In this document: positions 1 through 61,674 of the stretch, one piece after another
Position numbering within the stretch: position 1 is the stretch's first letter
How the letters are laid out: every line of letters begins with the position of its first letter
Assembly (NCBI GenBank): GCA_902586925.1
Contig: CACIJE010000001.1
Location: forward strand, 270,104-334,103
DNA length: 64,000 nucleotides
Source: an uncultured SAR86 cluster bacterium
Lineage (GTDB): Bacteria; Pseudomonadota; Gammaproteobacteria; Magnimaribacterales; D2472
Direction of reading: 5' to 3'
The notes under the pieces: model-generated
Told to the model about the DNA's origin: nothing
Databases searched by the model: none
Seen by the model: the letters and a program-made list of their open reading frames with translations, nothing else
Translations under genes and position numbers: made by a program

Positions 1-40
1 CAACTTTAAGAACCAAACTTAAAAAATATAATATTGGTCA

Positions 41-1579
41 ATGAATATTGTTAATCCACAGACCGCCCTAGTCAGTCTTTCAGATAAGAGCAACCTATAT
101 CATATTATTGATTTCTTAGTAAAGAAAAAAATTAAAATACTCTCTACTGGCGGAACTTATAACGCAATTAAAAAGATTACTGATAATGTTGTAGAGGTAT
201 CTGAATTTACTGGATTTGACGAAATGATGGATGGGAGAGTGAAAACTCTTCATCCTAAAATTCATGCAGGTATTCTTGCAAGGCGTGACTCAGATTTAGA
301 ATTACTTAAAGAAAAAGGTTACGAAACAATTGACCTTGTTATAGTAAATTTATATCCCTTTGAAGAAACTATAAAAAAAGATTGTTCTTTTGAAGATGCA
401 ATTGAAAATATTGATATTGGCGGTCCAACAATGATCAGAGCAGCAGCAAAAAATTTTCAAGATGTTGTGGTGTTATCAGATCCTAATGACTATGAAAAAA
501 TTACTAGAGAATGGGAGTCAAATGATGGCATTTCATATGAAACAAGAAAAAATTTATCACAAAAAGTTTTTAAGCTTATGGCTGATTACAACAAAACTAT
601 TTCTAATTATTTAGAAGGAAGTACTGAAAAAATTAATGATTATAATTTTTCAAAAAGTACCGTCTTGAGATATGGAGAAAATCCTCATCAATCAGCATCC
701 CTTCTTACATTTGAGAATCTACAAAATAAAAATATTGCAAATGCAGATATTCTGCAAGGCAAAGAGTTGTCCTATAACAACATAGTCGATGCGGATGCTG
801 CATGGGAATGTGTTAGGGAATTAAGTAATTCGGGTTGTGTGATTGTAAAACATGCAAATCCGTGCGGTGTTGCAGAAGCAAATTCTATTAGTGAAGCCTA
901 TGACTTAGCTTTCAAGACTGACCCAACTTCTGCCTTTGGTGGAATTATTGCTTTCAATCAGACTGTTGGCTCTGATACAGCTAAGGTTATAAATGAAAGG
1001 CAGTTTGTAGAGGTTATTATTGCTCCCGATTATGAAAAAGAGGCAATTGAAGAATTTTCTAAAAAAAAGAATATTAGAGTTTTAAAGGTTGATCTTAAAC
1101 AAGACAATCCTTATCCAGGAACAATAAAAAAAGTATCGGGTGGAATTTTAATTCAAGATGACGATTTAAAAAAAATAAATTCTGAAGAACTTAAATGTGT
1201 ATCAAAAAGAAATCCAACAGATCATGAAATAGAAGACCTTATTTTTGCTTGGAAAGTTGCTAAGTTTGTGAAAAGTAATGCAATTGTATATGTAAAAAAC
1301 AAACAAACTATCGGGATAGGTGCTGGTCAAATGAGTAGAGTTATAAGTGCTGAAATAGCTAATCTAAAAGCACATGAAGAAGGCCTAGAAGTCAAAAATG
1401 CTGTAATGGCATCTGATGCTTTCTTTCCGTTTAGAGATGGTATAGATAAGGCTGCATCAAGTGGAATTGCTGCAATAATTCAGCCAGGTGGTTCGATAAG
1501 AGATGATGAGATTATAGCTGCAGCTGATGAGCATGATATTGCTATGTTATTTACAGGAGTGAGGCATTTCAGACACTAA
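41..1579 (+). CDS. purH: Bifunctional AICAR transformylase/IMP cyclohydrolase
   Basis: Motifs GRVKTLHPKIHAGIL, IENIDIGGPTMIRAAAKN, LRYGENPHQ, SDAFFPFRD and C-terminal TGVRHFRH; upstream of purD. Confidence 0.98.
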   Translation: MNIVNPQTALVSLSDKSNLYHIIDFLVKKKIKILSTGGTYNAIKKITDNVVEVSEFTGFDEMMDGRVKTLHPKIHAGILARRDSDLELLKEKGYETIDLVIVNLYPFEETIKKDCSFEDAIENIDIGGPTMIRAAAKNFQDVVVLSDPNDYEKITREWESNDGISYETRKNLSQKVFKLMADYNKTISNYLEGSTEKINDYNFSKSTVLRYGENPHQSASLLTFENLQNKNIANADILQGKELSYNNIVDADAAWECVRELSNSGCVIVKHANPCGVAEANSISEAYDLAFKTDPTSAFGGIIAFNQTVGSDTAKVINERQFVEVIIAPDYEKEAIEEFSKKKNIRVLKVDLKQDNPYPGTIKKVSGGILIQDDDLKKINSEELKCVSKRNPTDHEIEDLIFAWKVAKFVKSNAIVYVKNKQTIGIGAGQMSRVISAEIANLKAHEEGLEVKNAVMASDAFFPFRDGIDKAASSGIAAIIQPGGSIRDDEIIAAADEHDIAMLFTGVRHFRH

Positions 1580-5314: not shown

Positions 5315-6733
5315 ATGATTGATATAGTTATTTTAAATAGAAACTTGAGGTTGCATGATAATGCAGCGCTATACTATGGTTCATTAAATTCAAATTATAT
5401 TGTCATTCATCCATATGATAAAAATTATTGGAAGGCAAATGGTAGGTCTGTCAGACAGTTAAAATTCTCATATGACTGTCTTCAAGAATTAGATGATAGC
5501 CTTAAGAGAATTGGCTCTGAAATAAATATATTTGAAGGCTCATTTGATGATCTTAAAAAATGGATAAAAATAAATTTCAATGATTGCTGTATACACATCA
5601 ATCACTGCACAGATATTGATTATTTTAGAAAAGGATTTGAAAAATTCAATCAAGAATTTGGAGACGGGCTAAAAGTTTATGATGATTTTGGATTACAACT
5701 AACTAATTTTGATAGAGATACATGGTCCAAGAATTGGAATCATGTTATGCATAGTAGTTTAATAGGTGCGCCTAAAATAAATAAAAATTCAGTTGATACA
5801 AATCTTATTAAGTTTAACGAACATAAAAATAAAATTAAAAGTAAATTTACTAATATAGAGCATATCCAAAAAGGTGGAACATCAGTTGCAAATGAACTTT
5901 TAGAAAGCTTTTTATATGAAAGGTGTGAAGATTACAGAGTAAAAATGTCCAGTCCTAGTCTTTCAGAGGATAGTTGCTCAAGATTATCGCCACATTTTAC
6001 ATATGGCTCAATATCAATAAGGCAGGTTTACCAAAGGCTTAATGAATTACTTCCGTCACTTGATAATAAGAAAGATCTGTATTCTTTTAAAAAAAGACTT
6101 TATTGGCATTGTCATTTTGTTCAAAAACTCCATACAGAGCCGGAACTTGAGTTTAATTCTATGCATCGAATGTGCGATGAGTTAAGAACTGAGCATGATA
6201 ATGAAATGATTGATAAATGGATTAAGGGTGAAACTGGATTCCCATTTTTGGATGCTTGTATGAAATTTTTAAAAATCAATGGATGGATTAATTTTAGAAT
6301 GAGAGCAATGATCATGTCATTTGCTTCATATAATATGTGGCAACCGTGGCAAAAAACATCACCTCTTCTAGCTGAGCTTTTTACAGATTATGAGCCAGGA
6401 ATTCATATCAGTCAGGTTCAAATGCAAAGTGGTGTTACTGGTATAAACTTACCAAGAATATATTCAATCCCAAAGCAAAGCATGGATCAAGATCCAAGTG
6501 GAGAGTGGATAAAAAATCTTCTTCCTCAGCTTAACAATGTTGAACCAAAGCTCATTCACAGCGCAGAATTAAATGATGCATACTTACCTCAAATAGTTGA
6601 TCTTAAAGTCTCTGCTAAGTTTGCTCGTGATAAGGTTTGGGGAATAAGAAAAAGTAAAGAGTTCAAAGAAGAAGCAAGAAGAGTATACCTAAAACATGGA
6701 AGCAGAAGAAAAAGAAATGTTAAAACTAATTAG
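5315..6733 (+). CDS. Cryptochrome/photolyase family flavoprotein
   Basis: N-terminal RNLRLHDNAAL; FAD-binding domain SRLSPHFTYGSISIRQV, WIKGETGFPFLDACM, GWINFRMRAM, DYEPGIH, DQDPSGEWIK. Confidence 0.9.
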   Translation: MIDIVILNRNLRLHDNAALYYGSLNSNYIVIHPYDKNYWKANGRSVRQLKFSYDCLQELDDSLKRIGSEINIFEGSFDDLKKWIKINFNDCCIHINHCTDIDYFRKGFEKFNQEFGDGLKVYDDFGLQLTNFDRDTWSKNWNHVMHSSLIGAPKINKNSVDTNLIKFNEHKNKIKSKFTNIEHIQKGGTSVANELLESFLYERCEDYRVKMSSPSLSEDSCSRLSPHFTYGSISIRQVYQRLNELLPSLDNKKDLYSFKKRLYWHCHFVQKLHTEPELEFNSMHRMCDELRTEHDNEMIDKWIKGETGFPFLDACMKFLKINGWINFRMRAMIMSFASYNMWQPWQKTSPLLAELFTDYEPGIHISQVQMQSGVTGINLPRIYSIPKQSMDQDPSGEWIKNLLPQLNNVEPKLIHSAELNDAYLPQIVDLKVSAKFARDKVWGIRKSKEFKEEARRVYLKHGSRRKRNVKTN

Positions 6734-13308: not shown

Positions 13309-13980
13309 TTAATTTTGATCATTATATAGGCTATTAGCAAGTTTTAAACGTTCATGCGTTCCAACATCTATCCATAAATCATTAGATTTGTGAGCCGATA
13401 CATCTCCATTATTAAGATAATTTGGAAGTACAGTATCCCAAATATTAAAAGAACCCGAACTGAAGTTTTTTTCTTTAAATATGATTGGATTTATAATAGA
13501 GATACCACTCCAAGTTAAATCATTTAACTGATCTAAAACAACAATATTATTATCATTGATACAAAAGTCTCCTTGCTGATTATGAGATGGATTCGGAACT
13601 CCAATTAAATGAGCAGCATCAACTTCTTTTGGTATATTTTTAATATCAATTTTATGAAAAATATCAGAATTCATAACTAAGAAATTTTCATCACCTAATA
13701 AATCTAAAGCATTCAAAATACCTCCACCAGTTCCTAAAGGCTTATCTTCTTTTGAAAACTCAATATTAATATTGGAGAATTTTTCTTTTACATGATTTTC
13801 AATCATAAAACCAAGATGTGAAATATTAATAACGAATTCTGTAAAGTCATTTTTAATTAAATATTCAATATTATGTTGTATTAAAGTTTTATTACCTACT
13901 CTTAAGAGCGGTTTGGGGATTTCTTTAGTTAAGGGTAATAATCTTTTGCCGTACCCAGCAGCTAAAATCATTACTTTCAT
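13309..13980 (-). CDS. murU: N-acetylmuramate alpha-1-phosphate uridylyltransferase
   Basis: MILAAGYGKRLLPLT, KPLL, LGTGGGI, WIDVGTHERL; directly downstream of amgK-like kinase. Confidence 0.85.
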   Translation of the reverse strand: MKVMILAAGYGKRLLPLTKEIPKPLLRVGNKTLIQHNIEYLIKNDFTEFVINISHLGFMIENHVKEKFSNINIEFSKEDKPLGTGGGILNALDLLGDENFLVMNSDIFHKIDIKNIPKEVDAAHLIGVPNPSHNQQGDFCINDNNIVVLDQLNDLTWSGISIINPIIFKEKNFSSGSFNIWDTVLPNYLNNGDVSAHKSNDLWIDVGTHERLKLANSLYNDQN

Positions 13981-14933
13981 AATTGCTCAACAGTTTTCAG
14001 TAAAAGTGGTTGAACTTCTTGTTCTAAAAAAAGTTTAGAGGAATGTTCTTCGGGAATCATCTTTATTAGATTCTTTAAAATTAAGGGCATATCTATTAAT
14101 CTAAAACTTCTATCTTTTGTTAAATATAAATCTGATAAAGTTCCAAGGATTCTAAGATTTCTTTGTATGCAGCCCCATCTAGTATATTCAAAACATGCGT
14201 CATCTGAATATTCTGATTTAACATTTGTTGAGAAAAAATTTAAAAAACTCTTAATGTTGGAAATATCTGCTTCTAAATAGTGATCTACTAAGATTCCTGC
14301 CATATCAATACCAATTGGTCCCTTTTTCATATCTTGATAATCGATAACTGTTAAATGATTATTCTTATTAAGAACTAAGTTACGTCTTTCAAAATCAAAA
14401 TGACAATTAACCCAAGGATGTTGATAAAGCTTATCAATGGTGATTGATATTAAGTCATTAATAGATTCATCTGATGCAATATTTAAAAATTTTTGACAAA
14501 AAACTTTATCAAATAAGCTCATCTGATTGATTAAGTCTTCTTTTGAAAATTCTTCCAGATTCTCAATTTCAGATTCTTGTAATTCAATCAAAAGATTTAA
14601 TGAGCTTTCTAATAGCTCTTTCTTATTATCGTCATTAAATATTGATATCAAGTCTTTGTCTCCCAAATCCTCCTGGATGGTGACTCCGGCTTGTTTATCG
14701 TAATGAATAATATCTACACCTGAAATATGATTTTTTTTAAGCTCGTTAGATATATTAATAAAATTTTCGTGATCGCCTTCGTTTGGGTCAAGGTAGCACA
14801 AAATTATTGTTTCTTTGGCATCATTAATTATTCGCCAATACTCTCTTCCACTAGCTTCTCGTTTTAATGGAATTACCTCTAGAGGGTTAAAGTTAAATTT
14901 TTTACTTAAATTTATTACTTCTTCTTCTTTCAA
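13977..14933 (-). CDS. amgK: Anomeric MurNAc/GlcNAc kinase (APH-like phosphotransferase)
   Basis: EASGREYWR, EDLGD, HFDFERRNL, VIDYQDMKKGP, QRNLRILGTLSDL; amgK-murU pairing near lptD; TTG start. Confidence 0.8.
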   Translation of the reverse strand: MKEEEVINLSKKFNFNPLEVIPLKREASGREYWRIINDAKETIILCYLDPNEGDHENFINISNELKKNHISGVDIIHYDKQAGVTIQEDLGDKDLISIFNDDNKKELLESSLNLLIELQESEIENLEEFSKEDLINQMSLFDKVFCQKFLNIASDESINDLISITIDKLYQHPWVNCHFDFERRNLVLNKNNHLTVIDYQDMKKGPIGIDMAGILVDHYLEADISNIKSFLNFFSTNVKSEYSDDACFEYTRWGCIQRNLRILGTLSDLYLTKDRSFRLIDMPLILKNLIKMIPEEHSSKLFLEQEVQPLLLKTVEQL

Positions 14934-17248: not shown

Positions 17249-19657
17249 ATGCAAAAAGTTATAAAAGTTGTTTTTATAACAATTATAGTTTCCTTCAACA
17301 ATTTTATTTTGGCTAATTTGTCAAATAGTGAATCTATAAAAATTAATACCAGTGCAAGTTCATCCTGCCTGATCTATGAACCTTATCTGGGAGTTGTTAA
17401 AGATATTGAAAATTTAAATATAAAGTCTGATAAATTTGAGATTACTGAAAATAAAGTTCTTATTTTAAATGACAATGTTGAGATAGATTTTCCAGATGGC
17501 ATTCTTAAGACAAGAAAGGCAAGAGTTGACAGAGAAAATGACATTATAGAATTTAAAAATAACGGAGAGTTATCTTTAAAAGACTTTTTTTTCAAATCAG
17601 CCGATGGAGTTTTCAATAGGAGTGATTCTTTTGTAGAACTTAATGATGGCAAAGTTTTTTTAAATCAAAGAAATTTAATTATTGATTTTGAATCACTCAA
17701 GGGAGATATAGAAGAGAGAGTTGAAATTAAAAATATTTCGATGACATCTTGTTCAGATTCTTCAAACGGCTGGGAACTTATTGCAGAAAATATTGTTATA
17801 AATGATAAATCAAAAAGAGGCTATGCAAAAAAAGTTAAGGTTAATGCATTTGATAAAACAATTTTAAGACTTCCTTTTTTACCATTTGCAACATCAGATG
17901 AGAGATTATCTGGGTTTTTAGAGCCTAAAGTATCTTATTCATCTGATGGCTTAGATTTTATGGTTCCATATTACTTTATAGTGTCCGATAAGTCTGACAT
18001 AACACTTGCATTGAGAAATATATCTGAAAGGGGAACTGGTATTGAAGGAAATTTCAGGAATCTGCATGGAAACAATAACAATCTTAGAAACATAGATTTG
18101 ATATATTTTAATGATGATGATGACTATAAAAAAAATTATCCATCAAATTCTGAATCAAGATGGGCATTTGCACTAGAAGACTCATATGGAAATTATAAAA
18201 ATTTTTGGATAGATGTAGACTGGTCTAAATCTTCAGATAGTTTAGTTTTAAGAGACTTACCTGGAGATATTACTAGTATTGGAAATCAGAGAGAACAAAA
18301 TTTGAAACAAAACATAAAGATAAATTCATCCTTAGGGAATTTCAGAGTTCAAATATCTCAAGAAGGTTATCAAACTCTTAATCCAATTCTAACTAATGGT
18401 TATAAAAAATCTCCATCAATTGATATTAACTATTACAGAAATTTTAAAAATTTCTCCCTCAAAGAACATTTAAACTTTACGAATTTTGTTGCAGATAACA
18501 TTCATGGATTTTATGGGATTAATAACATAGATGAATTTCAATCTTTGATTAAAAACCCACTTGAAGGCTCAAGGTTTTTTTATAATTTAGAAGTCTCTAA
18601 CTCTACGCATTTTAATGGTTATAAGATATCTAGCTCCTTTGGTATAAGGGGAATAGATTACGATATAGAAAATAAAAATAGGATAAAAACTAAATCAGTA
18701 ATTGTTCCAACTCTCAATTTTGATATCAGTACATCTTTCATCAAAAAGGATTCAGGAAATAGTCATATCGTTAAACCAAGGATATATTATGGTTATGTAG
18801 GATATGAAAATCAGGAAAATAATCCAGTATTTGATAGTTATAAATTAGGGATGATGAATCAACTTTTTAATATTAATCGTTTTACTGGAATGGATAGGAT
18901 TGGGGATCAAAACTTTTATACGTTAAGTATCGAGTATAAAAAAAGACATATGGATATGAATAAAATATCTTTAAAGTTAAGTCAAAAATTTTATATAAAA
19001 GATAGAAAAGTATTCATAGACGAGATGAGTCATATGCAAACGGAATCCAAAATGACTTCTAATTCAATGGGCATGGGAATGATGGAGATGTCGATGATGC
19101 CAATGACAATGATGAGTGGAGATAAAGGTCCCTTAATGTTAATGGGCAAATGGATGCCGAGCATGAATACTATGGTAATGACATATGGAAGTTATTCTGA
19201 GGAGATGAAAAAATTTCCCATGGCAGGTCTAACGATTAATCATAGATTAGAAAATGGGAAAATAGGATATGCTAAGAGATATACAAGAATGTCGGGTGAT
19301 TTTAATAATAAGCTTGATTATTCAGAGTTTTTTGTAGATTTTAAAATAAAAGATAATTTAAATATTATAGCAAAGTTCAAAAGAGATGATGATTTAAATG
19401 AAAGTATAGAATCCTCGTTTGGTATTGGGTATGAAAATTGTTGTTTTGCTTTTAGAATAGTTGTATCAGATAAAAACCTTTCAAGATATTTAGATGGCTA
19501 TAAATCTGAAACCTTTAATTATCTTAGAGAAGCGTGGGATAGTATTATAAAAATTGAGAACAAAAGTAGAATTAACTTTGAATTTGAACTCAAAGGACTT
19601 AACTCGTCTTTTGAAAAAGTTTCAAGATTCATTAATAATTCGATTCTGGATTACTGA
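17249..19657 (+). CDS. lptD: LPS-assembly protein LptD (with Met-rich segment)
   Basis: Position before surA-pdxA-rsmA; PFLPFATSDERLSGFL, FTGMDRIGDQN, TSC and C-terminal YENCC cysteines. Confidence 0.9.
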   Translation: MQKVIKVVFITIIVSFNNFILANLSNSESIKINTSASSSCLIYEPYLGVVKDIENLNIKSDKFEITENKVLILNDNVEIDFPDGILKTRKARVDRENDIIEFKNNGELSLKDFFFKSADGVFNRSDSFVELNDGKVFLNQRNLIIDFESLKGDIEERVEIKNISMTSCSDSSNGWELIAENIVINDKSKRGYAKKVKVNAFDKTILRLPFLPFATSDERLSGFLEPKVSYSSDGLDFMVPYYFIVSDKSDITLALRNISERGTGIEGNFRNLHGNNNNLRNIDLIYFNDDDDYKKNYPSNSESRWAFALEDSYGNYKNFWIDVDWSKSSDSLVLRDLPGDITSIGNQREQNLKQNIKINSSLGNFRVQISQEGYQTLNPILTNGYKKSPSIDINYYRNFKNFSLKEHLNFTNFVADNIHGFYGINNIDEFQSLIKNPLEGSRFFYNLEVSNSTHFNGYKISSSFGIRGIDYDIENKNRIKTKSVIVPTLNFDISTSFIKKDSGNSHIVKPRIYYGYVGYENQENNPVFDSYKLGMMNQLFNINRFTGMDRIGDQNFYTLSIEYKKRHMDMNKISLKLSQKFYIKDRKVFIDEMSHMQTESKMTSNSMGMGMMEMSMMPMTMMSGDKGPLMLMGKWMPSMNTMVMTYGSYSEEMKKFPMAGLTINHRLENGKIGYAKRYTRMSGDFNNKLDYSEFFVDFKIKDNLNIIAKFKRDDDLNESIESSFGIGYENCCFAFRIVVSDKNLSRYLDGYKSETFNYLREAWDSIIKIENKSRINFEFELKGLNSSFEKVSRFINNSILDY

Positions 19658-37343: not shown

Positions 37344-39326
37344 TTAAATGCTTAATAATGGTGCTATAACAAGGCTTACTATAGCCATAACATTAATTAA
37401 GATATTCATAGATGGTCCTGAAGTATCTTTAAAAGGATCTCCAACGGTATCTCCAACCACAGCGGCAGCATGAGTATCTGAACCCTTACCACCTAAATTG
37501 CCTTTCTCAACATATTTTTTTGCATTATCCCAAGCACCACCAGCGTTTGCCATCATTAGTGCTAATGAAACACAACCAAGTAGTCCACCAGCAAGCATTC
37601 CACCTAATGCTTGTGCACCAAGCCCAAACCCAACAATAGCAGGCATTGATACCGCTATTACTCCTGGTAACATCATCTTTTTAAGGGCTGCTGTTGTGGC
37701 TATTTCAACACATTTTTCAGAATCAGGTTCTGCTACACCCTCCATTAAACCGTCTATCTCTTTAAACTGTCTTCTTATTTCGTTAATCATTTCAAAAGCT
37801 GCGTCTCCAACTGCTGTCATTGTTATTGAAGAAACTAAGAAAGGTATACAAACGCCGATAAACATTCCAACCAAAACAATTGGTTCAGTAAGTGCTAATG
37901 AAAATTCAGGATTTGCATCAGCTACAACAGCTGAAAAAGCTGAAATTATTGCAAGAGCAGCTAAAGCTGCGGCGCCAATTGCAAAACCTTTACCAATCGC
38001 AGCAGTTGTATTTCCTAATTCATCAAGAGAATCAGTAATTTCTCTAACTTCTTCTCCCATACCTGACATTTCAGCAATGCCACCAGCATTATCTGCAACT
38101 GGTCCATATGCATCTATTGCCATTGTTATTCCAACAGTTGCTAGCATACCAACAGCCGCAATTCCAACACCATAAATACCCGATAATTGTGTTGAGGCAA
38201 GAATAATTCCAGCTAAAATTACAATTGGTATTACAACTGATTGCATACCAACTGATAATCCTGAAATCATGACTGTTGCTGATCCAGTTTCTCCTGATTC
38301 AGCTATTTTTTTTACTGGGCTACCGCCTGTATAGTATTCTGTAATAAGTCCAATTAAGACACCGCCTACTGCACCGCATATAACACACCACCAAACATTC
38401 ATTCCAACTCCATCTAAAGAATCAATTATGAAGTATGCCATTGCTACAAATATCACTGGCGCTAGAAAAGTTCCAGATCTCAATGCACTTGCAGGTGCTT
38501 TTGCTGACTGAAGCTTAACTATGAATATTCCAATTATTGACGCTATTAAACCAGTTGAAGCTAGAGCAAGAGGTAGCATCATCATATCTTTGTTTCCTAA
38601 TGTATAAGCTATAGCTATTGAGGCAATCATAGAACCACAATATGACTCAAATATATCTGAACCCATGCCGGCAACATCACCAACATTATCACCAACATTG
38701 TCTGCTATAACACCAGGATTTCTTGGATCATCTTCAGGAATGCCAGCTTCAATTTTACCAACAAGATCGGCTCCAACATCTGCACTTTTTGTAAAAATTC
38801 CTCCACCTACTCTAGAAAAAAGAGCGACCACTGATGCACCCATAGCAAAACCTTCAAGCTTATGAGGATCAATTTCAGCTGGTATATAAAAATAATATAA
38901 GCCTCCTAAACCTATCAAACCTAATGATGCTACACAAAGACCCATAATCGATCCTCCATAAAAAGATACCGATAAAGCTGCTGCTGGACCATCTTTTTGA
39001 GCTGCTGTTGCTGTTCTTACATTTGCTTTAGTTGCTGCATACATTCCTATAAAACCTGCAATTGATGAACATAAAGCACCGACAACCACTGCAATTGCAG
39101 TGAAAGGCCCTAATGCAAACCAAGCCAAACCAACTATCGCAGTCATAAAAATAAACAAATATTTGTACTCTGTTTTCATAAAGGTCAATGCTCCAGTATG
39201 AATCTGGTCACCAATTTTTTTTACTTTATCTTCACCATCAGGGTATTTCATAACAAGCATATAAACTACATATGCTACAGCCATACCCAAAAGACCTAAA
39301 GTAGGTGAAATTATTAAACTATCCAT
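37344..39326 (-). CDS. hppA: Membrane pyrophosphatase, K+-dependent, probably Na+-translocating
   Basis: [66 protein letters not shown] (K+-dependent signature), [19 protein letters not shown]. Confidence 0.96.
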
Positions 39327-44504: not shown

Positions 44505-45473
44505 ATGAAAACATACGAATATATATGGCTAGATGGATATCAGCCTGAGCCAATGATGAGAAGTAAAGTTAAAGCTACTGATGATGAAACTCCTCCAGAC
44601 TGGTCTTTTGATGGTTCTTCAACACAACAAGCTGAAGGTGGAAGTTCTGATTGTTTACTTATACCAGTTCAAACATATTCAAATCCAAATGGTCATGATC
44701 TTGTGATGACTCAAGTTCAGTCAGCTGATCATACTACTCATCCATCTAATTTCAGAGCTGCAGCTGCTGAGGTTGTTTCTGATGAGTGGTGGTTTGGTTT
44801 TGAACAAGAGTTCTTTTTTACTGATCCTCAAACAGGTGAACCATTAGGATGGGAAGATGGTGAACCAAGAGAACAAGGTGAATACTACTGTGGAGTTGGT
44901 GCAAGTAACGTAGTTGGCAGAGAAATTTCTGATGCACATCTTCAAGCATGTTTAGATCTCGGTATTACGCTCACAGGTACTAATGCAGAGGTCGCATTAG
45001 GTCAGTGGGAGTACCAATGTTTTGGAAAGGGGATCAAGGCCGCTGATGACCTTTGGGTGAGTCGTTATTTACTTTACAAAATTGCAGAAGAATTTGGTGT
45101 TGGTGTGAACATTCATCCAAAACCAAAAACTGGTGATTGGAACGGCTCAGGCATGCATACAAACTTTTCAAATGAGGCAATGAGGACAGCAGGTTCTGAA
45201 GAATTATTTAGTTCTATGTGTGACAAACTTGGTGAAGTTCATGATGCTGGAATAGCTGCATATGGCTCTGATAATGACATGAGATTAACTGGTTTACATG
45301 AAACACAAAAAATAACAGAATTCTCATATGGCGTCAGCGACAGAGGCGCAAGCATAAGAATACCTGTTTATACAGTTGAACATGACTGGAACGGCTATTT
45401 AGAAGATAGAAGGCCTGCATCAAATGCAGATCCATATAAGATTTTAGCTCATATCGTAGGAACGCTAACTTAA
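44505..45473 (+). CDS. glnII: Glutamine synthetase type II
   Basis: 322 aa; EYIWLDG, WSFDGSST, WFGFEQE, QGEYYCGVGA, GTNAEVALGQWEYQ, GDWNGSGMHTNFS, RLTGLHET, DRGASIRIP, EDRRPASNADPY; SD AGGAG. Confidence 0.92.
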   Translation: MKTYEYIWLDGYQPEPMMRSKVKATDDETPPDWSFDGSSTQQAEGGSSDCLLIPVQTYSNPNGHDLVMTQVQSADHTTHPSNFRAAAAEVVSDEWWFGFEQEFFFTDPQTGEPLGWEDGEPREQGEYYCGVGASNVVGREISDAHLQACLDLGITLTGTNAEVALGQWEYQCFGKGIKAADDLWVSRYLLYKIAEEFGVGVNIHPKPKTGDWNGSGMHTNFSNEAMRTAGSEELFSSMCDKLGEVHDAGIAAYGSDNDMRLTGLHETQKITEFSYGVSDRGASIRIPVYTVEHDWNGYLEDRRPASNADPYKILAHIVGTLT

Positions 45474-45523: not shown

Positions 45524-46600
45524 ATGGAAATTGCCAAAGCAGAGTTATCTTTCTTAAACCAGCTTACCTCTGAAATTATCATTCTTGATGAAAATCTCAA
45601 AATAGTGTGGTTGAATTATTCTGCATTAAATAAAGGTTGGATCATTGATAATAAAAAAAGTTTGATAACTGATCAGCTATCTGAAGTTACAAACGCTTCT
45701 TTAGTTGGTCTATTTAAAAATGCAATAAGAAAAAATCTCTCACAAACCAAGAGAGATTTTGAACTAATTAATTCTAAACTTGAAAAAAGAGAGATCGATG
45801 TAACAGTGAGGTGGAGTAATTCATACGAATGTCTAATTGTTGAAATTTTGTGTGTTGACAATCTCAATAAAATGGTTGATTCGTCAAAAAGTTTTTCAAT
45901 ACAAAAGATAGCAGCAAATTTAGCAAGAACCCTAGCTCATGAAGTTAAGAACCCCCTGTCTGGTATTAAAGGAAGTGCTCAAATTCTTAGAAAAAAGTTA
46001 AAAGATGATTTTTCTTCAAAATTTCTCAAAATAATTATTGATGAAACTGATAGATTAAATAGTATTGTTACAAAAATTCTTACTCCACCTTCAAAACCTA
46101 ATCTTGCGCCTTTTAATATTCATTCTGCTCTTGAAAAAGTTTATGCATTAGCTGATGCAGATAAAAATGAAAAAATTAAACTTATAAGAGACTACGATCC
46201 TAGCATCCCTGAAATAAATGGTGATGAGAACTTATTTGTTCAAGCAATTCTTAATATTGTAAAAAATGCACAGCAGGCAATTGAAAATACAAAAGATCCA
46301 TCAATTACTATTAAATCAAGAATCCAATTTGGTAAACCTATAAATGGGACAACATATCCAACAATATGCTCTATAGAAATTAAAGATAATGGTCCTGGCA
46401 TACCTAATGAACTTCATGATCAGGTTTTTTTTCCAATGGTCTCTGTGAAAGAGAACGGATCTGGATTAGGCCTAACTATTGCTCAGGATATTATAAGGAT
46501 TCATGGTGGAGGAATAGTGTTTTCATCTGATCCAGGAAATACAGTTTTTTCAATTCAAATTCCTATTAAAGCAGATAATAAGGAGTCTCAAATTGCATAG
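45524..46600 (+). CDS. glnL: Nitrogen regulation sensor histidine kinase NtrB
   Basis: PAS-like N-terminus, LAHEVKNPLSGIKGSAQIL, DYDPSIP, NIVKNA, DNGPGIP, GSGLGL. Confidence 0.95.
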   Translation: MEIAKAELSFLNQLTSEIIILDENLKIVWLNYSALNKGWIIDNKKSLITDQLSEVTNASLVGLFKNAIRKNLSQTKRDFELINSKLEKREIDVTVRWSNSYECLIVEILCVDNLNKMVDSSKSFSIQKIAANLARTLAHEVKNPLSGIKGSAQILRKKLKDDFSSKFLKIIIDETDRLNSIVTKILTPPSKPNLAPFNIHSALEKVYALADADKNEKIKLIRDYDPSIPEINGDENLFVQAILNIVKNAQQAIENTKDPSITIKSRIQFGKPINGTTYPTICSIEIKDNGPGIPNELHDQVFFPMVSVKENGSGLGLTIAQDIIRIHGGGIVFSSDPGNTVFSIQIPIKADNKESQIA

Positions 46601-47969
46601 TGTATGGATTGCAGATGATGACCAAGCAATTAGACTTGTCCTTGAGGAGAGTCTCTCAAGTTCAGGGTTTCAAACAGAAAGCTTTTCAAACGGCGAAGAC
46701 TTAATAAAAAAACTTGAGACTAATCAGCCAGACTTAATAATTACCGATGTACAAATGCCAGGAATGCTAGGTTTTGATCTAATGAAACATATAAATAATA
46801 ATTTTGAGAACATCCCAGTTATTATTATGACCGCTTTTGCTGATATGCAAACAGCTGTCGAGTCATTTGGTGGTGGTGCATTTGAATATTTACCCAAGCC
46901 ATTTGATCTAGAGGAAGCAACAGAAATTGTTGTAAGAGCTTTGGAGGATAAACCAAAAACTAAAGGTCTAAAAAAAGATACAAAGCTTGATATAGTAGGT
47001 GAATCACAAGCAATGCAGAATGTTTATAGAGCTATTGGCAAGCTATCAAGTACCATCGCAACTGTATTAATTCAAGGAGAATCTGGAACTGGTAAGGAAT
47101 TAATAGCAAAATCACTTCACAAAAATAGTCCTAGAAATGATATGCCATTTATAGCACTTAATATGGCTGATATTCCAAAAGAACTTGTCGAGTCTGAGCT
47201 TTTTGGACACGAGAAAGGTTCTTTTACTGGAGCTGTAGAAAAAAGAATTGGCAGATTTGAGCAAGCAAATGGCGGGACTTTATTTTTAGATGAAATTGGA
47301 GATATGCCTTTAGACTCTCAAACACGTCTTCTAAGAGTGCTATCAAATAAAGAATTTTACAGAGTTGGTGGAGATAAACCTATAAAAGTGGATGTTAGAA
47401 TTGTTGCAGCTACTCACCAAAATCTTAATAATCTAGTATCACAAAATAAATTTAGAGAAGATCTTTTTTACAGGTTGAATGTGATTAAAATTGAAGTTCC
47501 TCCTCTTAGAAATAGAAAAGATGACATTAAAGAACTTTCTAGGTTCTTTCTTAAAAATTACTCAGATTCACTTGATGAAGATCTTAGGGTGATTTCAGAT
47601 GAAGCAATGAATTTACTTGAAAAGTTTGATTGGCCAGGAAATGTTAGACAACTTGAAAATGTATGCTATTGGTTAACGCTAATGTCGCCATCTCAAAATA
47701 TAAAATCTCAAGATTTACCAACTGAAGTTAAAGAATTTGAAGTTACTGATATCCCATCATCCTCTTGGGAAGAAGGAATGCAAAATTGGCTTAAAAACGT
47801 TTCAATGAATATCGATTCTGGTCTTTCTGAGATAGCCATAACAAAAATTGAAAAAATGCTCATTAAAACTGCTCTTGAAAGATCAAATGGTAAAAAAAAT
47901 GATGCAGCTCAGATCTTGGGTTGGGGTAGAAATACTCTTACAAAAAAAATGAAAGACCATGGGATTTAA
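46593..47969 (+). CDS. glnG: Nitrogen regulation response regulator NtrC
   Basis: Receiver (ITDVQMPG), AAA+ ([42 protein letters not shown]), Fis-type HTH (LGWGRNTL); TTG start with AAGGAG SD. Confidence 0.96.
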
Positions 47970-50406: not shown

Positions 50407-53010
50407 ATGAGCGATAATTCTAATTCAAAATTTCCGTCTGAAGCTGAGGTTGTTATTGTTGGTGTAGGAGGAATTGTTGGATCTATGTTGGCCTATTGGT
50501 TAGCAGAACTTGGACAAAAAAATATTGTTGGGCTTGAGAAATCAACTATTATTCCTTCTGATATTGCTTCTACTGCTCATGCATCAGATTTTGTGTATAA
50601 CACGACACATGACAAATTAGGTTGTTGGACGACTGCATTCAGTAGAAAATTTTACGAAGATAATGGATTCTTTTTAAAAAAAGGTGGCCTAGAGATCTGC
50701 CGAAAAGATGACGATGAGCGATGGGAAGAACTTAAACGAAAAGTTGCATCAGGTAAAGCATTTGGCACGAATGTTAAATTAATATCTGCTGCTGAGGCAG
50801 TTGAGAAATTTCCATTACTTGAGGAAGAATCTTTAAAGGGAGCAATGTGGGATCCTGATGCAGGTCTTGTAGTTCCGAGATCACAAGAGGTTGTGAATTT
50901 TGCAGTTGAGAGTGCTAAAGAAAAAGGATCATTGAAAACTTTTACTAACACCCCTGCTACTGGATTTGAAACAGAAAATGGCAAAATTGTTGCAGTTAAA
51001 ACTGACAAAGGAATAATCAAAACTAAAAAAGTTGTTATTGCCTCAGGAATTTGGGGGCCTTTAATGGGAGATATGGTGGGTGTTCGAGTTCCTTTAATGC
51101 CTCTGGAACATCCACTTTTATTTTTCGGACCATATGAAGATATTCAGGAGACAAATGAACTATTGGTCTATCCTCTGCTAAGAGATCAAGGTAATTCAGC
51201 CTATGTAAGGGATACTGGAAAATTACATGGTGGGATGCTCGAATGGGGTTTTTATGAAGACAAGAATCCCAGATTAGTTGATCCTAAAGATATAGGAAAT
51301 CCAGATAAGACAATGTTATCTGATTCAATGAGGTATTTAGAGTTAGAAGAAATTGCAGAGCCTTTGGAAAAAGCATTTGAAACAACACCAATTCTCAGTG
51401 AATTAGGTTGGGATGAAAAAAGTTCATTTAATGGGCTTTTATCTGTAACAGCTGATGCAGGTTCTTTAATTGGTGAAAGTCCAGAGGTTAGAGGGTTTTG
51501 GTTATGTGAAGCTGTTTGGGTTAAAGATGGACCGGGTTGTGCCAGATTATGTGCAGAAGCTATGGTTAATGGTAAAACTCAAGTAGATATGCATTCTTTT
51601 GACATATCAAGATTCTATCCACATCAAAAAGAAAAAGATTTTGTAAAGACAAGAGCATACGAAAATTCTCAAACTATTTATACGCCTGCTGTTCACCCAA
51701 GAGAGCCATATGTTACTCAAAGAGAAATGTTTGTCAGTCCTTTCTATGAAAGGGAAAAAGAGCTTGGTGGTCATTTCGAAAACGAAGTTGCAGGTTGGGA
51801 GCGAGCTCTTGCTTATACATCTAATAGAGAAAAAATTAAACAGTATTTTAAAGACGTGCCATCAAGAGAAAATGAATGGGATACTCGTCATGTACCCTAT
51901 GATGTAGCTAATGCCGAACATTTAGCTATGAGTGATTCAGTTGGTATGATCAACTTGTCTCACTTCCCTATTATGGATATCAAAGGTCCAGATGCCGAAC
52001 GTATGTTGGAATTTCTTTCAGTTGCCAAAGTTGGAGGTAATACTCCTGAAGGTAAAGTAACTTATACAAATTTTTTAGATGAAGATGGTGGAGTTCATGC
52101 TGATCTTACTATTTCACGTCTTGGGTCTGATAGTTACAGAGTCGTAACCGGTGGTGCTGATGGAAATCGTGACTGGGTTACTCTGCGCAATTATAGGGAT
52201 GATAGTGGATTAAATGCAGACATAGATATTAGAACTCATGACATTGCGACTATAGGATTATGGGGGCCAAAAGCTGTTAATGCTTTAAGTAATTTTATAG
52301 ACTCCAACCAAATTGATATAAAAAATTTTCCTTTTGCCACAGCAAAGAACTTAACTCTTAACTTATCTGGTGGTAAAAAAGTTGATGTTTGGGCAGCAAG
52401 AATTTCATATGTTGGTGAATGTGGATGGGAAATTTACTTCAATAACAATAAAGAAGATGGTTTGGCTCTATATGATTCACTCCTTGAGGTTGGAGTGGTT
52501 CCAGTTGGTATTGAAACATATGCAAATAGCAGGCGACTAGAAAAAAGCTTCAGGCTTCAGGGAGCTGATCTTGAGACAGAATACAACTCCGTTGAAGCAG
52601 CCATACAAAGATCACTAGTTAAAGAAGCAGATTTTCATGGTAAAGCTGCTCATTTATCTCATCGTGAAGAGGATCCGTGTGCCATTCTATGTACTATGAC
52701 ATTAGATGATTTAAATGTATCAGGTATTACGAGATATCCTGTAGGTATCTGTCCAATTATTGATCCTGCCACCGGGGAGGTACCTATCGATAGCAAAGGA
52801 CGAAGATCTTATACAACAGGTATGTCCTACTGCCCTTCTATTAAAAAATTTGTTGCCATGAGTTATTTACCAAGAGAACTAGCTATTCAAGGTAAACAAC
52901 TACTTATTGAATACTTCAACGAAGATGGTGATGGAATTTATCCAATAACTGTTCAAATTGTTGGTAAGGGGTCTTTATATGATCCCAGTAATGAAAGAGT
53001 TCGATCGTAG
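50407..53010 (+). CDS. FAD-dependent oxidoreductase with GcvT-like folate-binding domain (dimethylglycine/sarcosine dehydrogenase-like)
   Basis: N-terminal Rossmann VVIVGVGGIVG, STAHA, PLRDQGNSAYVRD, GWERA, YTNFLDEDGGVHADLTI, RISYVGECGWEIY, RRLEKSFR. Confidence 0.88.
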   Translation: MSDNSNSKFPSEAEVVIVGVGGIVGSMLAYWLAELGQKNIVGLEKSTIIPSDIASTAHASDFVYNTTHDKLGCWTTAFSRKFYEDNGFFLKKGGLEICRKDDDERWEELKRKVASGKAFGTNVKLISAAEAVEKFPLLEEESLKGAMWDPDAGLVVPRSQEVVNFAVESAKEKGSLKTFTNTPATGFETENGKIVAVKTDKGIIKTKKVVIASGIWGPLMGDMVGVRVPLMPLEHPLLFFGPYEDIQETNELLVYPLLRDQGNSAYVRDTGKLHGGMLEWGFYEDKNPRLVDPKDIGNPDKTMLSDSMRYLELEEIAEPLEKAFETTPILSELGWDEKSSFNGLLSVTADAGSLIGESPEVRGFWLCEAVWVKDGPGCARLCAEAMVNGKTQVDMHSFDISRFYPHQKEKDFVKTRAYENSQTIYTPAVHPREPYVTQREMFVSPFYEREKELGGHFENEVAGWERALAYTSNREKIKQYFKDVPSRENEWDTRHVPYDVANAEHLAMSDSVGMINLSHFPIMDIKGPDAERMLEFLSVAKVGGNTPEGKVTYTNFLDEDGGVHADLTISRLGSDSYRVVTGGADGNRDWVTLRNYRDDSGLNADIDIRTHDIATIGLWGPKAVNALSNFIDSNQIDIKNFPFATAKNLTLNLSGGKKVDVWAARISYVGECGWEIYFNNNKEDGLALYDSLLEVGVVPVGIETYANSRRLEKSFRLQGADLETEYNSVEAAIQRSLVKEADFHGKAAHLSHREEDPCAILCTMTLDDLNVSGITRYPVGICPIIDPATGEVPIDSKGRRSYTTGMSYCPSIKKFVAMSYLPRELAIQGKQLLIEYFNEDGDGIYPITVQIVGKGSLYDPSNERVRS

Positions 53011-60407: not shown

Positions 60408-60893
60408 ATGAAAGATAAAGGTTATAGGCTAAATGTAGGAATTATTATTGCGAACAAAAAAGGTGAACTATTATTATGTAAAAGAAAAGGTATGAATAGT
60501 TGGCAGTTTCCTCAAGGGGGTATTGATTTTGGAGAAGACTCTCTAAAAGCTGCCAAAAGAGAACTTTTTGAGGAAGTTGGAATTAAGTCAAACTCAGTAA
60601 AATTAATAGACTCGATTGATGATTGGTTAAAATATGATATACCTAAAAAAAGCAGAAGAAAAAAAATTTTTAAAACTAATTTTAAAGGTCAAAAACAAAA
60701 ATGGTTTTTATTTAAATTGAAGGAAGATGTAAAAATATCTTTTGATAATGATCCTGATAATGAGTTTGACAATTTTAAATGGGTGTCCTACTGGTATCCT
60801 CTTAATATAATTATTTCATTCAAAGAAAAAGTCTATAGAGAAGCATTAAATAAATTAAAATATTCATTCTGTAGAGAATTTTATAATGTTTGA
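60408..60893 (+). CDS. rppH: RNA pyrophosphohydrolase
   Basis: GYRLNVGII, WQFPQGGID, Nudix box AAKRELFEEVG, GQKQKWFL, WVSYWYPL, FKEKVY. Confidence 0.96.
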   Translation: MKDKGYRLNVGIIIANKKGELLLCKRKGMNSWQFPQGGIDFGEDSLKAAKRELFEEVGIKSNSVKLIDSIDDWLKYDIPKKSRRKKIFKTNFKGQKQKWFLFKLKEDVKISFDNDPDNEFDNFKWVSYWYPLNIIISFKEKVYREALNKLKYSFCREFYNV

Positions 60894-61674
60894 CGAAGTT
60901 TTAATATTTGGAGTGCTAGGAATTCTTTCTGGACTGTTGGCTGGTATGTTTGGTATTGGAGGAGGGCTAATTATGGTGCCAGTTCTTATTGGCATATTTA
61001 TAAATCTTGGATTTGAAGATGTGATTATTGTTCAACTTGCAATTGGTACATCGATATCATGTATTATCTTTACAGGACTTTCTTCAGCAAATGCTCATAG
61101 AAAAAAAAATTCAATTGATTTTGATAGCTTAAAGCCTGTGGCTTCTGGAATAATATTTGGTGCATTTTTAGGTGCGCTATTTGCGGTTCAAATTGATGGA
61201 TTGATATTAAAAATTACAATTGCAACATTTGTACTAGTTGTTGGTACCGATATTCTTTTAAATAAAGATCTTTTACAAAATATATTACGTCTAAAACCAA
61301 AATCAATTTTTGTTGGTTCAGGAATAGGATTTTTGTCCTCAATCTTAGGCATTGGAGGAGGAACTTTTTCAGTTCCTTATTTTAAGGGTTCTGGGCTCAA
61401 TCTTACCTCTGCAATTGGCACATCAGCAGCATGTGGTGTGCCAATAGCTATTTTTGGCACTTTAGGATATGTTTTTGCAGGCATAAATCAAAATATGTTA
61501 CCTAATTTAAGTTTTGGATATGTATATTTACCAGCTCTTCTTGGGGTCTCTCTAACAAGTATTTTTTCTGCAAAATATGGTGCTGATATAGCTCATTATT
61601 TATCTCAAACAACTCTTAGGAGACTTATGGCGGGTTGGTTTTTTATAATATCAATATATATGTTCATAGTATGA
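60886..61674 (+). CDS. Sulfite exporter TauE/SafE (TSUP) family protein
   Basis: Duplicated GMFGIGGG / GIGGGTF motifs, AIGTS twice; upstream of lgt. Confidence 0.9.
   Translation: MFDEVLIFGVLGILSGLLAGMFGIGGGLIMVPVLIGIFINLGFEDVIIVQLAIGTSISCIIFTGLSSANAHRKKNSIDFDSLKPVASGIIFGAFLGALFAVQIDGLILKITIATFVLVVGTDILLNKDLLQNILRLKPKSIFVGSGIGFLSSILGIGGGTFSVPYFKGSGLNLTSAIGTSAACGVPIAIFGTLGYVFAGINQNMLPNLSFGYVYLPALLGVSLTSIFSAKYGADIAHYLSQTTLRRLMAGWFFIISIYMFIV

Follow-up and report, generated by a model that had tools for sequence, protein, structure and literature searches.

The stretch of DNA analysed here (64,000 nucleotides at full length, hereafter the window) comes from a SAR86 cluster gammaproteobacterium and carries an lptD gene with a segment that is unusually rich in methionine (Met). 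The open reading frame (ORF) of lptD lies at 17249-19657 on the forward strand and encodes 802 residues. Its segment at 19025-19222 encodes residues 593-658, and 21 of these 66 residues are Met. The translated peptide is exactly the one that had been pointed out in a first-pass annotation of this DNA. The other 736 residues of the protein hold 9 Met. Across the long ORFs of the window, the mean Met content is 2.2%, and at a frequency of 2.23% the binomial probability that 66 residues include 21 or more Met is 7e-19. The richest other stretch of 30 residues in the window has 5 Met, compared with 13 in the LptD segment. Very probably, the segment belongs to a Met module that is specific to one clade and maintained by selection, and that comprises the ninth extracellular loop (L9) of the LptD barrel and the neighbouring strands.

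The assignment of the gene to lptD, and of the segment to the C-terminal barrel, had also been made in the first-pass annotation and was borne out. The ORF product matched PF04453 (LptD) with an E-value of 1e-31 and 111 bits against a cut-off of 22.4. LptD chains in the Protein Data Bank (PDB) matched it with E-values down to 1e-43. A model of the protein was built by AlphaFold2 (AF2) from an alignment of 34 sequences, with a mean predicted local distance difference test score (pLDDT) of 59.9 and a predicted template modelling score (pTM) of 0.42. The best Foldseek matches of this model were all LptD, with an E-value of 3e-34 and template modelling (TM) scores of about 0.5-0.6. The model contains a beta-rich N-terminal domain followed by 26 barrel strands, and short turns alternate with longer loops. 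The comparison with Escherichia coli LptD was carried out with an L-INS-i alignment bridged by 60 representatives. The disulfide cysteines C31, C173, C724, and C725 of E. coli correspond to C40, C168, C731, and C732 in the window protein. The prolines of the lateral gate between strands b1 and b2, P231 and P246 in E. coli, correspond to P226 and P240. The four cysteines and the two gate prolines are invariant in alignment A1.

The loop numbers were anchored by the same E. coli comparison. Residues 330-352 of E. coli LptD, which are the imp4213 region of extracellular loop 4 (EL4) (PMC12685063), align to residues 324-349 of the window protein and mark L4. Residues 529-538 of E. coli align to residues 529-537, inside L8; therefore, the next outward loop is L9. 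In E. coli, L8 enters the lumen of the barrel and contacts LptE (PMC6592684). From the barrel topology and the E. coli landmarks, L9 is predicted to be extracellular. The E. coli L9 can be reached by antibodies, and its deletion gives no phenotype in growth or in minimum inhibitory concentration (PMC6592684). In addition, EL6-EL9 form the 'back' of the complex, which remains static during the opening of the lateral gate (PMC12685063). L9 of the window protein is 46 residues long and has 13-14 Met, and its counterpart in E. coli has about 19 residues and 0 Met. The pLDDT of the model is below 50 across residues 585-624, and L9 is probably disordered. Beyond the loop, Met continues into the predicted beta-strands, as had been noticed at first. 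Strands b18 and b19 hold five conserved Met, and M639 is located in the periplasmic turn (T9) between them (Table 1).

Several simple explanations of the segment were tried and rejected. An assembly artefact or a frameshift was rejected since an identical or similar segment occurs in more than 100 independent clusters and in single amplified genomes (SAGs) and metagenome-assembled genomes (MAGs). The feature is present in 120 protein clusters and in more than 40 SAR86 genome loci from independent projects. Coding on the reverse strand was rejected because the reverse frame contains stops. An RNA element was rejected because Rfam and ARAGORN find only a tRNA-Phe in the window, far from the segment. 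No tandem DNA repeat was found by Tandem Repeats Finder at 18800-19400 of the window. The isolated segment and the isolated loops gave no match to solved structures or Pfam families at E-values up to 10.

The distribution of the module was followed through related LptDs. In each of the 120 listed homologues, which are 56-100% identical, the richest span of 66 residues is at the same position and contains 12-26 Met. Almost all of the 64 related loci in species-representative genomes are labelled as SAR86 cluster or as unclassified Gammaproteobacteria, and the closest one, from SAG AG-337-G10, is 87% identical. Distant SAR86 LptDs (30-39% identity) have an L9 core of 9-10 residues with 0-1 Met. 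In an intermediate SAR86 clade (45-49% identity), the core has 9-32 residues with 1-11 Met. In the crown clade (at least 53% identity), which includes SAR86A, it has 29-48 residues with 8-18 Met. Loop length and loop Met count are correlated with a rho of 0.96, uncorrected for phylogeny; the inserted L9 material is Met-rich. For a wider comparison, 1.8 billion proteins clustered at 50% identity supplied the 150 nearest LptD representatives. At least 8 Met in 30 residues were found in SAR86-type entries only. The other entries among these 150 have no more than 4 Met in 30 residues, except for one 40%-identical relative with 6. Co-occurring SAR86 lineages and E. coli do not have the module.

These comparisons indicate that the Met module is confined to one SAR86 subclade and that it is graded within SAR86. 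The module is not a general property of LptD. The first-pass annotation had allowed that the segment might be absent from close relatives, might be an artefact of assembly, or might not be conserved. The segment was found in close relatives and is no artefact, and its Met composition is kept down to about 45-53% identity. Two side observations were made on the same sequences. First, a 40% identical LptD (P0122) has a small Met cluster, LMSMNMSMDKLM, at about residues 561-590, which is located at b16/T8/b17 and not in L9. The Met enrichment of this barrel sector may have begun at the periplasmic turn in some lineages, judging from this sequence. Second, some public MAGs appear to contain mis-binned contigs. 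Two SAR86-type lptD loci with the Met-rich loop and 62% identity (L008 and L046; NYXO01000082.1 and NYXO01000078.1) are in a MAG labelled 'Methanobacteriota archaeon ARS96', and a C-terminal LptD fragment (L064; CAKZXY010000122.1) is inside a MAG labelled 'Clavibacter sp.'.

The L9 core of the crown clade has a characteristic composition of 38% Met, 15% Ser, 14% Asn, 10% Asp, and 5% Gly, with Lys and Arg together below 1%. Usually there is one His, and the net charge is acidic. The residues between the Met are Asn, Gly, Asp, Ser, Pro, and His. In 32 distinct loops, MxM accounts for 43% of the Met-Met spacings against 24% in shuffled loops, and directly adjacent MM is depleted (20% against 38%). 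MxxM accounts for 19% against 15% in the shuffles, and MxxxM for 14%. Cores of different subclades align poorly; they share their composition and MxM/MxxM spacing but differ in sequence and length. Several subclades have internal L9 repeats with differing unit sequences. At locus L005 (4789-4877), L9 is encoded by an in-frame 27-nt tandem repeat of 3.3 copies with 93% matches. At the SAR86A locus L011 (4776-4883), it is encoded by an in-frame 27-nt tandem repeat of 3.3-4 copies. The unit is roughly MMSNSMNMG/N, and the matches range from 71 to 93% over both loci. Since the units are in frame and 27 nt long, the loop length at these two loci shifts by whole Met-containing units. Accordingly, the first-pass statement that the segment is encoded by non-repetitive DNA and is not a product of simple slippage stands for the window copy but does not extend to the family.

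The Met enrichment is not restricted to L9. Fixed gains were defined as positions that are Met in 86-100% of the crown sequences and another residue in the distant SAR86 LptDs. About 16 such positions in L8, b15-b20, L10, and L11 became Met in the crown clade, and several of these Met replace Lys, Asn, Asp, Ser, or Gln (Table 1). Met at 630, 632, 636, 639, 642, and 644 is near-invariant. Outside the L9 core, 16 of the 21 gained Met columns fall within residues 503-681, a part that accounts for 18% of the length without the core. Essentially no Met was gained by the remaining predicted extracellular loops (L3, L4, L6, L7, and L13), which have two scattered Met-rich columns only, neither of them a gain of the crown clade. 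Loop and strand Met counts rise together with a Spearman coefficient of 0.88, which was calculated on related sequences and is uncorrected for phylogeny.

The orientation of the strand Met was approached through the E. coli alignment. The invariant K634, which stands opposite a Tyr of E. coli, has the same strand parity as residues 630, 632, and 636, and these three residues align to Ala, Asp, and Arg of E. coli, respectively. Residues 642 and 644 align to Gly and Arg. From the polarity pattern and this alignment, the Met at 630, 632, 636, 642, and 644 may face the lumen. The gains are concentrated in the adjoining elements L8, T8, b17-b20, and L10, where side-chain orientation is read from polarity and alignment only. 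The surface patch suggested by the first-pass annotation therefore describes the module in part: L9 is extracellular by topology, but fixed Met are also present at putative lumen positions and periplasmic turns of b17-b19. One clade-specific gain was observed outside this sector. At residue 220 (17906-17908), in the conserved hinge motif S-D/E-E-R-x-S/T-G-F-L-E-P just before b1, the alignment of L001-L058 shows Met in most crown and intermediate SAR86 and His in distant SAR86, and the window protein itself has Leu.

Table 1. Features of the window LptD and positions of Met gain in the crown SAR86 clade (nucleotide coordinates are those of the window).
Feature	Residues (aa)	Nucleotides	Strand	Remarks
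Signal peptide and periplasmic beta-jellyroll	about 1-226		+	
26-strand barrel	about 227-781		+	
L8, long loop, predicted extracellular	516-555	18794-18913	+	clade-specific Met 535, 536, 548
Met of T8 and of the start of b17	568, 570	18950-18958	+	93-100% Met in crown clade
L9, predicted extracellular loop	583-628	18995-19132	+	AF2 strands stop at 582 and restart at 629
Met-rich L9 core	593-625	19025-19123	+	13 Met, MxM/MxxM units, acidic
b18	629-638	19133-19198 (b18, T9, and b19 together)	+	AF2
T9, periplasmic turn between b18 and b19			+	AF2; holds M639
b19	641-650		+	AF2
L10 and first residue of b20	651-657, 658	19199-19222	+	Met 653, Met 658
Tryptic peptide of the Met-rich segment				MTSNSMGMGMMEMSMMPMTMMSGDK
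Met gain in L8	535			Q or R in distant SAR86
Met gain in L8	536			G in distant SAR86
Met gain in L8	548			Y in distant SAR86
Met gain in T8	568			D in distant SAR86
Met gain in b17	570			L in distant SAR86
Met gain in b18	630			A in distant SAR86
Met gain in b18	632			S in distant SAR86
Met gain in b18	636			N in distant SAR86
Met gain in T9	639			K in distant SAR86
Met gain in b19	642			K in distant SAR86
Met gain in b19	644			N in distant SAR86
Met in L10	653			Q in distant SAR86; Met in half of crown sequences only
Met gain in b20	658			N in distant SAR86
Met gain in L11	681			I in distant SAR86

The maintenance of Met was examined in LptD and in the products of the immediate neighbour genes. 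The crown loops of 29-48 residues keep 35-45% Met across lineages that are 53-65% identical. Met has the single codon ATG, yet residues that are one mutation away from it (Ile, Leu, Val, Thr, Lys, and Arg) make up only about 8% of the loop residues in a genome of 32% GC. In a population of 28 sequences with 96-100% identity, variable sites number 6 of 33 in the L9 core and 53 of 769 in the rest of the protein; the core is 2.6 times faster, at a pace comparable to that of the other exposed loops. Within this population, single L9 Met swap with Ile, Val, and Ala, position 598 gains a Met, and 18-21 Met are kept per segment. The periplasmic SurA, the product of the neighbour gene, contains 2.9% Met in the crown clade, 2.35% in the intermediate clade, and 2.3% in distant SAR86, at 31.6-33.9% GC. 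Since SurA does not show the Met shift at similar GC, the shift in LptD is no composition effect.

A proteome-wide bias to Met or AT was rejected with a window background of 2.2% Met and 2.3-2.9% Met for SurA in all clades. A nitrogen-saving replacement of Lys, Asn, and Gln was rejected as well, as the loop itself contains 14% Asn. The sulfur cost, which the first-pass annotation had called striking, fits the known physiology. SAR86 genomes have no sulfate assimilation, and SAR86A has no Met biosynthesis (PMC3358033). Despite this auxotrophy, SAR86A (L011) places 18 Met in an L9 of 47 residues. About 20-25 extra Met are thus invested in one sector of LptD by a globally abundant, uncultured ocean lineage whose cells need external reduced sulfur, and this investment implies that the module brings a real advantage under selection at the cell surface.

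The genes around lptD were also inspected. The order dsbA-like, lptD, surA, pdxA, rsmA, and apaH-like is the usual gammaproteobacterial arrangement. An APH-family kinase gene and a nucleotidyltransferase gene form a pair upstream on the reverse strand (13309-14933), and two SDR genes and the dsbA-like gene intervene before lptD. We take this pair to resemble the amgK/murU peptidoglycan-recycling pair that adjoins lptD in Pseudomonas. No LptE-family ORF was found among the about 60 Pfam-annotated ORFs of the window; lptE is normally encoded away from lptD, in the order leuS-lptE-holA. The GC content of the window is 31.8%. A glutamine-synthetase-like ORF of 322 residues (44505-45473, forward) matches Gln-synt_N and Gln-synt_C in part. 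Its length is low for a GlnA, and it could be truncated, divergent, or frameshifted. Directly downstream of it is an ntrB/ntrC-like pair, a histidine kinase and a sigma-54 activator (45524-46600 and 46593-47969). Further genes of the window are typical of the SAR86 lifestyle. They encode an H+-pyrophosphatase (37344-39326, reverse), an enzyme noted for SAR86 (PMC3358033), an 867-residue DAO+FAO_M+GCV_T dehydrogenase of the dimethylglycine/sarcosine type (50407-53010, forward), a photolyase/cryptochrome-like protein (5315-6733, forward), and a member of the TauE/SafE sulfite-exporter family (60886-61674, forward).

What the module does was considered by analogy with known Met-rich proteins, of which the Cu(I)-binding methionine tracks of copper transporters are the most similar. 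The reading that we favour, tentatively and short of calling it probable, is that the module may be a thioether 'methionine track' binding Cu(I) or Ag(I). First, the thioethers would offer a chain of low-affinity sites for soft monovalent ions, that is, Cu(I) and by extension Ag(I). Second, L9 would serve as a flexible capture antenna at the cell surface. Third, the putative lumen-side Met of b17-b19 would lead the metal down the static back wall of the barrel as far as the periplasmic rim. There, the metal would be either kept off sensitive targets or handed inward for cuproenzyme supply. The export of lipopolysaccharide (LPS) would be unaffected because the module is at a distance from the lateral gate. 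Such a track would be consistent with the MxM/MxxM spacing, with spacers that are acidic and contain His, with the crowding of Met into a single sector that is predicted to reach from the surface loop to the periplasmic rim, and with the precedents of OprC and Ctr1/COPT. L9 may be free to carry an accessory role, given that it is dispensable in E. coli and that EL6-EL9 are static on gate opening. The stronger form, in which LptD moonlights as an outer-membrane Cu(I) handling device with an L9 antenna, a Met ladder on b17-b19, and a periplasmic-rim cluster of 568, 570, 636, 639, and 642, is unlikely. If it were true, a Met-auxotrophic streamlined cell would gain a copper path without a dedicated transporter, and a metal-handling function of LptD would have been found for the first time.

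Several points weigh against the methionine track. A high-affinity terminal site is not evident in the protein, where the CxxxM-HxM arrangement is absent and the sole cysteines are the four disulfide cysteines. No copper-handling gene was seen among the about 60 Pfam-annotated ORFs of the window. The lumen orientation comes from polarity and the E. coli alignment, and the AF2 model has the low pLDDT given above, below 50 in L9. LptD is not known as a metal-handling protein. The module is missing from sympatric SAR86 lineages of the same SAG collection; therefore, it is not required for life in the surface ocean. The MxM alternation would fit an amphipathic beta-hairpin equally well. Finally, because the sequences share a phylogeny, their independence is overstated by the statistics.

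An oxidant sink or a redox-responsive lid is possible but doubtful. In such a case, exposed thioethers would be sacrificially oxidised by hypohalous acids or singlet oxygen and would shield the disulfide-dependent LptD or other envelope targets. In a variant of this explanation, the conversion of Met to methionine sulfoxide would turn the loop from hydrophobic to hydrophilic. A loop with 38% Met that is predicted to be exposed and flexible would suit this role, and its composition is conserved over position, as a bulk scavenger would have it. A precedent exists in MrpX (PMC4436054). SAR86 is a surface-ocean lineage, and genes for a photolyase-like protein and an AhpC/TSA redoxin are present in the window as well. 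However, an extracellular loop would be beyond re-reduction by periplasmic MsrP, and MrpX acts together with its linked yedYZ genes, whereas no msr or yedYZ gene is in the window. A general shield should mark every exposed loop, but the L8-L11 sector alone is enriched. The regular MxM/MxxM units, the conserved His, the acidic spacers, and the Met at putative lumen and periplasmic-rim positions would be needless for scavenging. LptD is a low-abundance protein, and the stoichiometric capacity would be small for this reason.

A structural role is possible too, and we hold it to be just as doubtful as the oxidant sink. Flexible Met side chains would make a malleable hydrophobic surface, which could act as a plug or seal, contact or substitute for LptE, or contact LPS or another glycolipid. 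The absence of an lptE gene from the window would fit a substitute, with the qualification that lptE is normally encoded elsewhere. The fixed Met replace polar residues at putative lumen-facing positions, and they are also present in L8, the loop that contacts LptE inside the lumen in E. coli. The lumen geometry of Neisseria gonorrhoeae LptDE is compatible with it: the barrel lumen is two-lobed, and LptE is located beside the constriction between the lobes (PMC8983717). Moreover, Storek et al. grouped L8 and L9 of E. coli as one shared antibody epitope (PMC6592684). On the other hand, the L9 core varies both in sequence and in length (29-48 residues), evolves 2.6 times faster than the rest, and has no confident predicted structure. 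It is full of Ser, Asn, Asp, and Gly and is not hydrophobic overall, unlike a packed interface.

A hypervariable loop under phage or grazer pressure, with the Met richness as a by-product of an amplified repeat unit, is quite unlikely. The role of LptD as a phage receptor is established (PDB 9rqi and 9rpt; PMC12685063), and L9 is exposed in E. coli. The evolution of L9 also outpaces that of the other parts of the protein, and its length changes by gain and loss of 27-nt repeats. Nevertheless, phage pressure would not account for the 35-45% Met in every variant against AT mutational pressure, nor for the buried or lumen-side strand positions that became fixed as Met. L3, L6, and L7 evolve as fast and are not Met-rich. 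The one structurally mapped receptor-binding protein of an LptD-binding phage contacts EL3-5 and EL11, not EL9 (PMC12685063). Lastly, a functionless, neutral expansion of low-complexity sequence by replication slippage would agree with the in-frame tandem repeats of relatives, the variable length, and the dispensable loop of E. coli, but it is very unlikely, as the window copy has no repeat and still keeps its Met, the composition is stable over deep divergence, the strand Met substitutions are co-ordinated with the loop enrichment, SurA has no comparable Met shift, and Met is costly in lineages without sulfate assimilation or Met synthesis.

LptD is essential and surface-exposed and has been studied as a target of antibiotics and phages, and its loops are generally seen as passive shields. 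If the module does bind Cu(I), as the methionine track would have it, trace-metal biogeochemistry would be linked to the LPS machinery, and streamlined cells would be seen to load further functions onto essential scaffolds. Should it be a redox or a structural device instead, it would represent a novel means of tuning the largest bacterial barrel. The natural series of L9 loops, from 0 to 18 Met, and the dispensability of L9 in E. coli make the question directly testable.

In most respects, the SAR86 protein is a regular LptD. Like LptD (Imp/OstA) of E. coli, Shigella, and Pseudomonas, it has the Pfam domain, the jellyroll and the 26-strand barrel, the four cysteines, and the two gate prolines, together with long L4 and L8 loops and the lptD-surA-pdxA-rsmA synteny. 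Unlike E. coli LptD, it has an expanded Met-rich L9 and about 16 further Met in L8, b15-b20, L10, and L11. The nearest outer-membrane comparison is OprC/NosA, a TonB-dependent copper importer in which 11-12 Met extend inwards from the extracellular face and hold Ag(I)/Cu(I) in Met3 sites (PMC8610252). OprC is also an outer-membrane beta-barrel, and the Met of SAR86 LptD also gather in a single sector, which is predicted to extend from a surface loop into the barrel. SAR86 LptD is no homologue of OprC, however, and has no plug or TonB-dependent-receptor domain, no Ton box, and no CxxxM-HxM site. Its Met are far denser, and some of them belong to a probably disordered, repeat-derived loop.

The window L9 contains MSMMPMTMM, and human CTR1 contains MMMMPMTF. 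The Ctr1/COPT proteins have Mets motifs of the MxM/MxxM type in their N-terminal extracellular part (PMC4039008). As in these proteins, MxM/MxxM clusters of SAR86 LptD occur in an extracellular, flexible segment rich in Ser, Asn, Asp, and Gly beside a membrane pore. Ctr1/COPT is a eukaryotic trimeric channel of three helices per subunit, and no counterpart of its MxxxM selectivity filter is evident in SAR86 LptD. Membership in the Ctr/COPT family was not found, as Pfam gives LptD only and the isolated loops have no match at E-values up to 10. The resemblance to Ctr1 is one of convergent composition only. MrpX is a periplasmic peptide of 20% Met that scavenges hypochlorite and is recycled by YedY/MsrP (PMC4436054). 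Both MrpX and L9 are very Met-rich extracytoplasmic polypeptides in which the bulk Met content matters over the exact sequence. Unlike L9, MrpX is a separate soluble periplasmic protein that is 44% charged and co-transcribed with yedYZ. L9 is part of an essential outer-membrane protein, extracellular by topology, poor in Lys and Arg, and without linked msr genes; no msr or yedYZ/msrPQ gene was found among the about 60 Pfam-annotated ORFs of the window. Nothing relevant that ties LptD to a Met-rich region was found in the literature, and the SAR86 genomics papers make no mention of one. The Met-rich L9 module of SAR86 LptD is therefore apparently unreported. The regular LptD and, elsewhere, Met-rich modules for metal or redox functions are known; their combination in a graded SAR86 series appears to be new.

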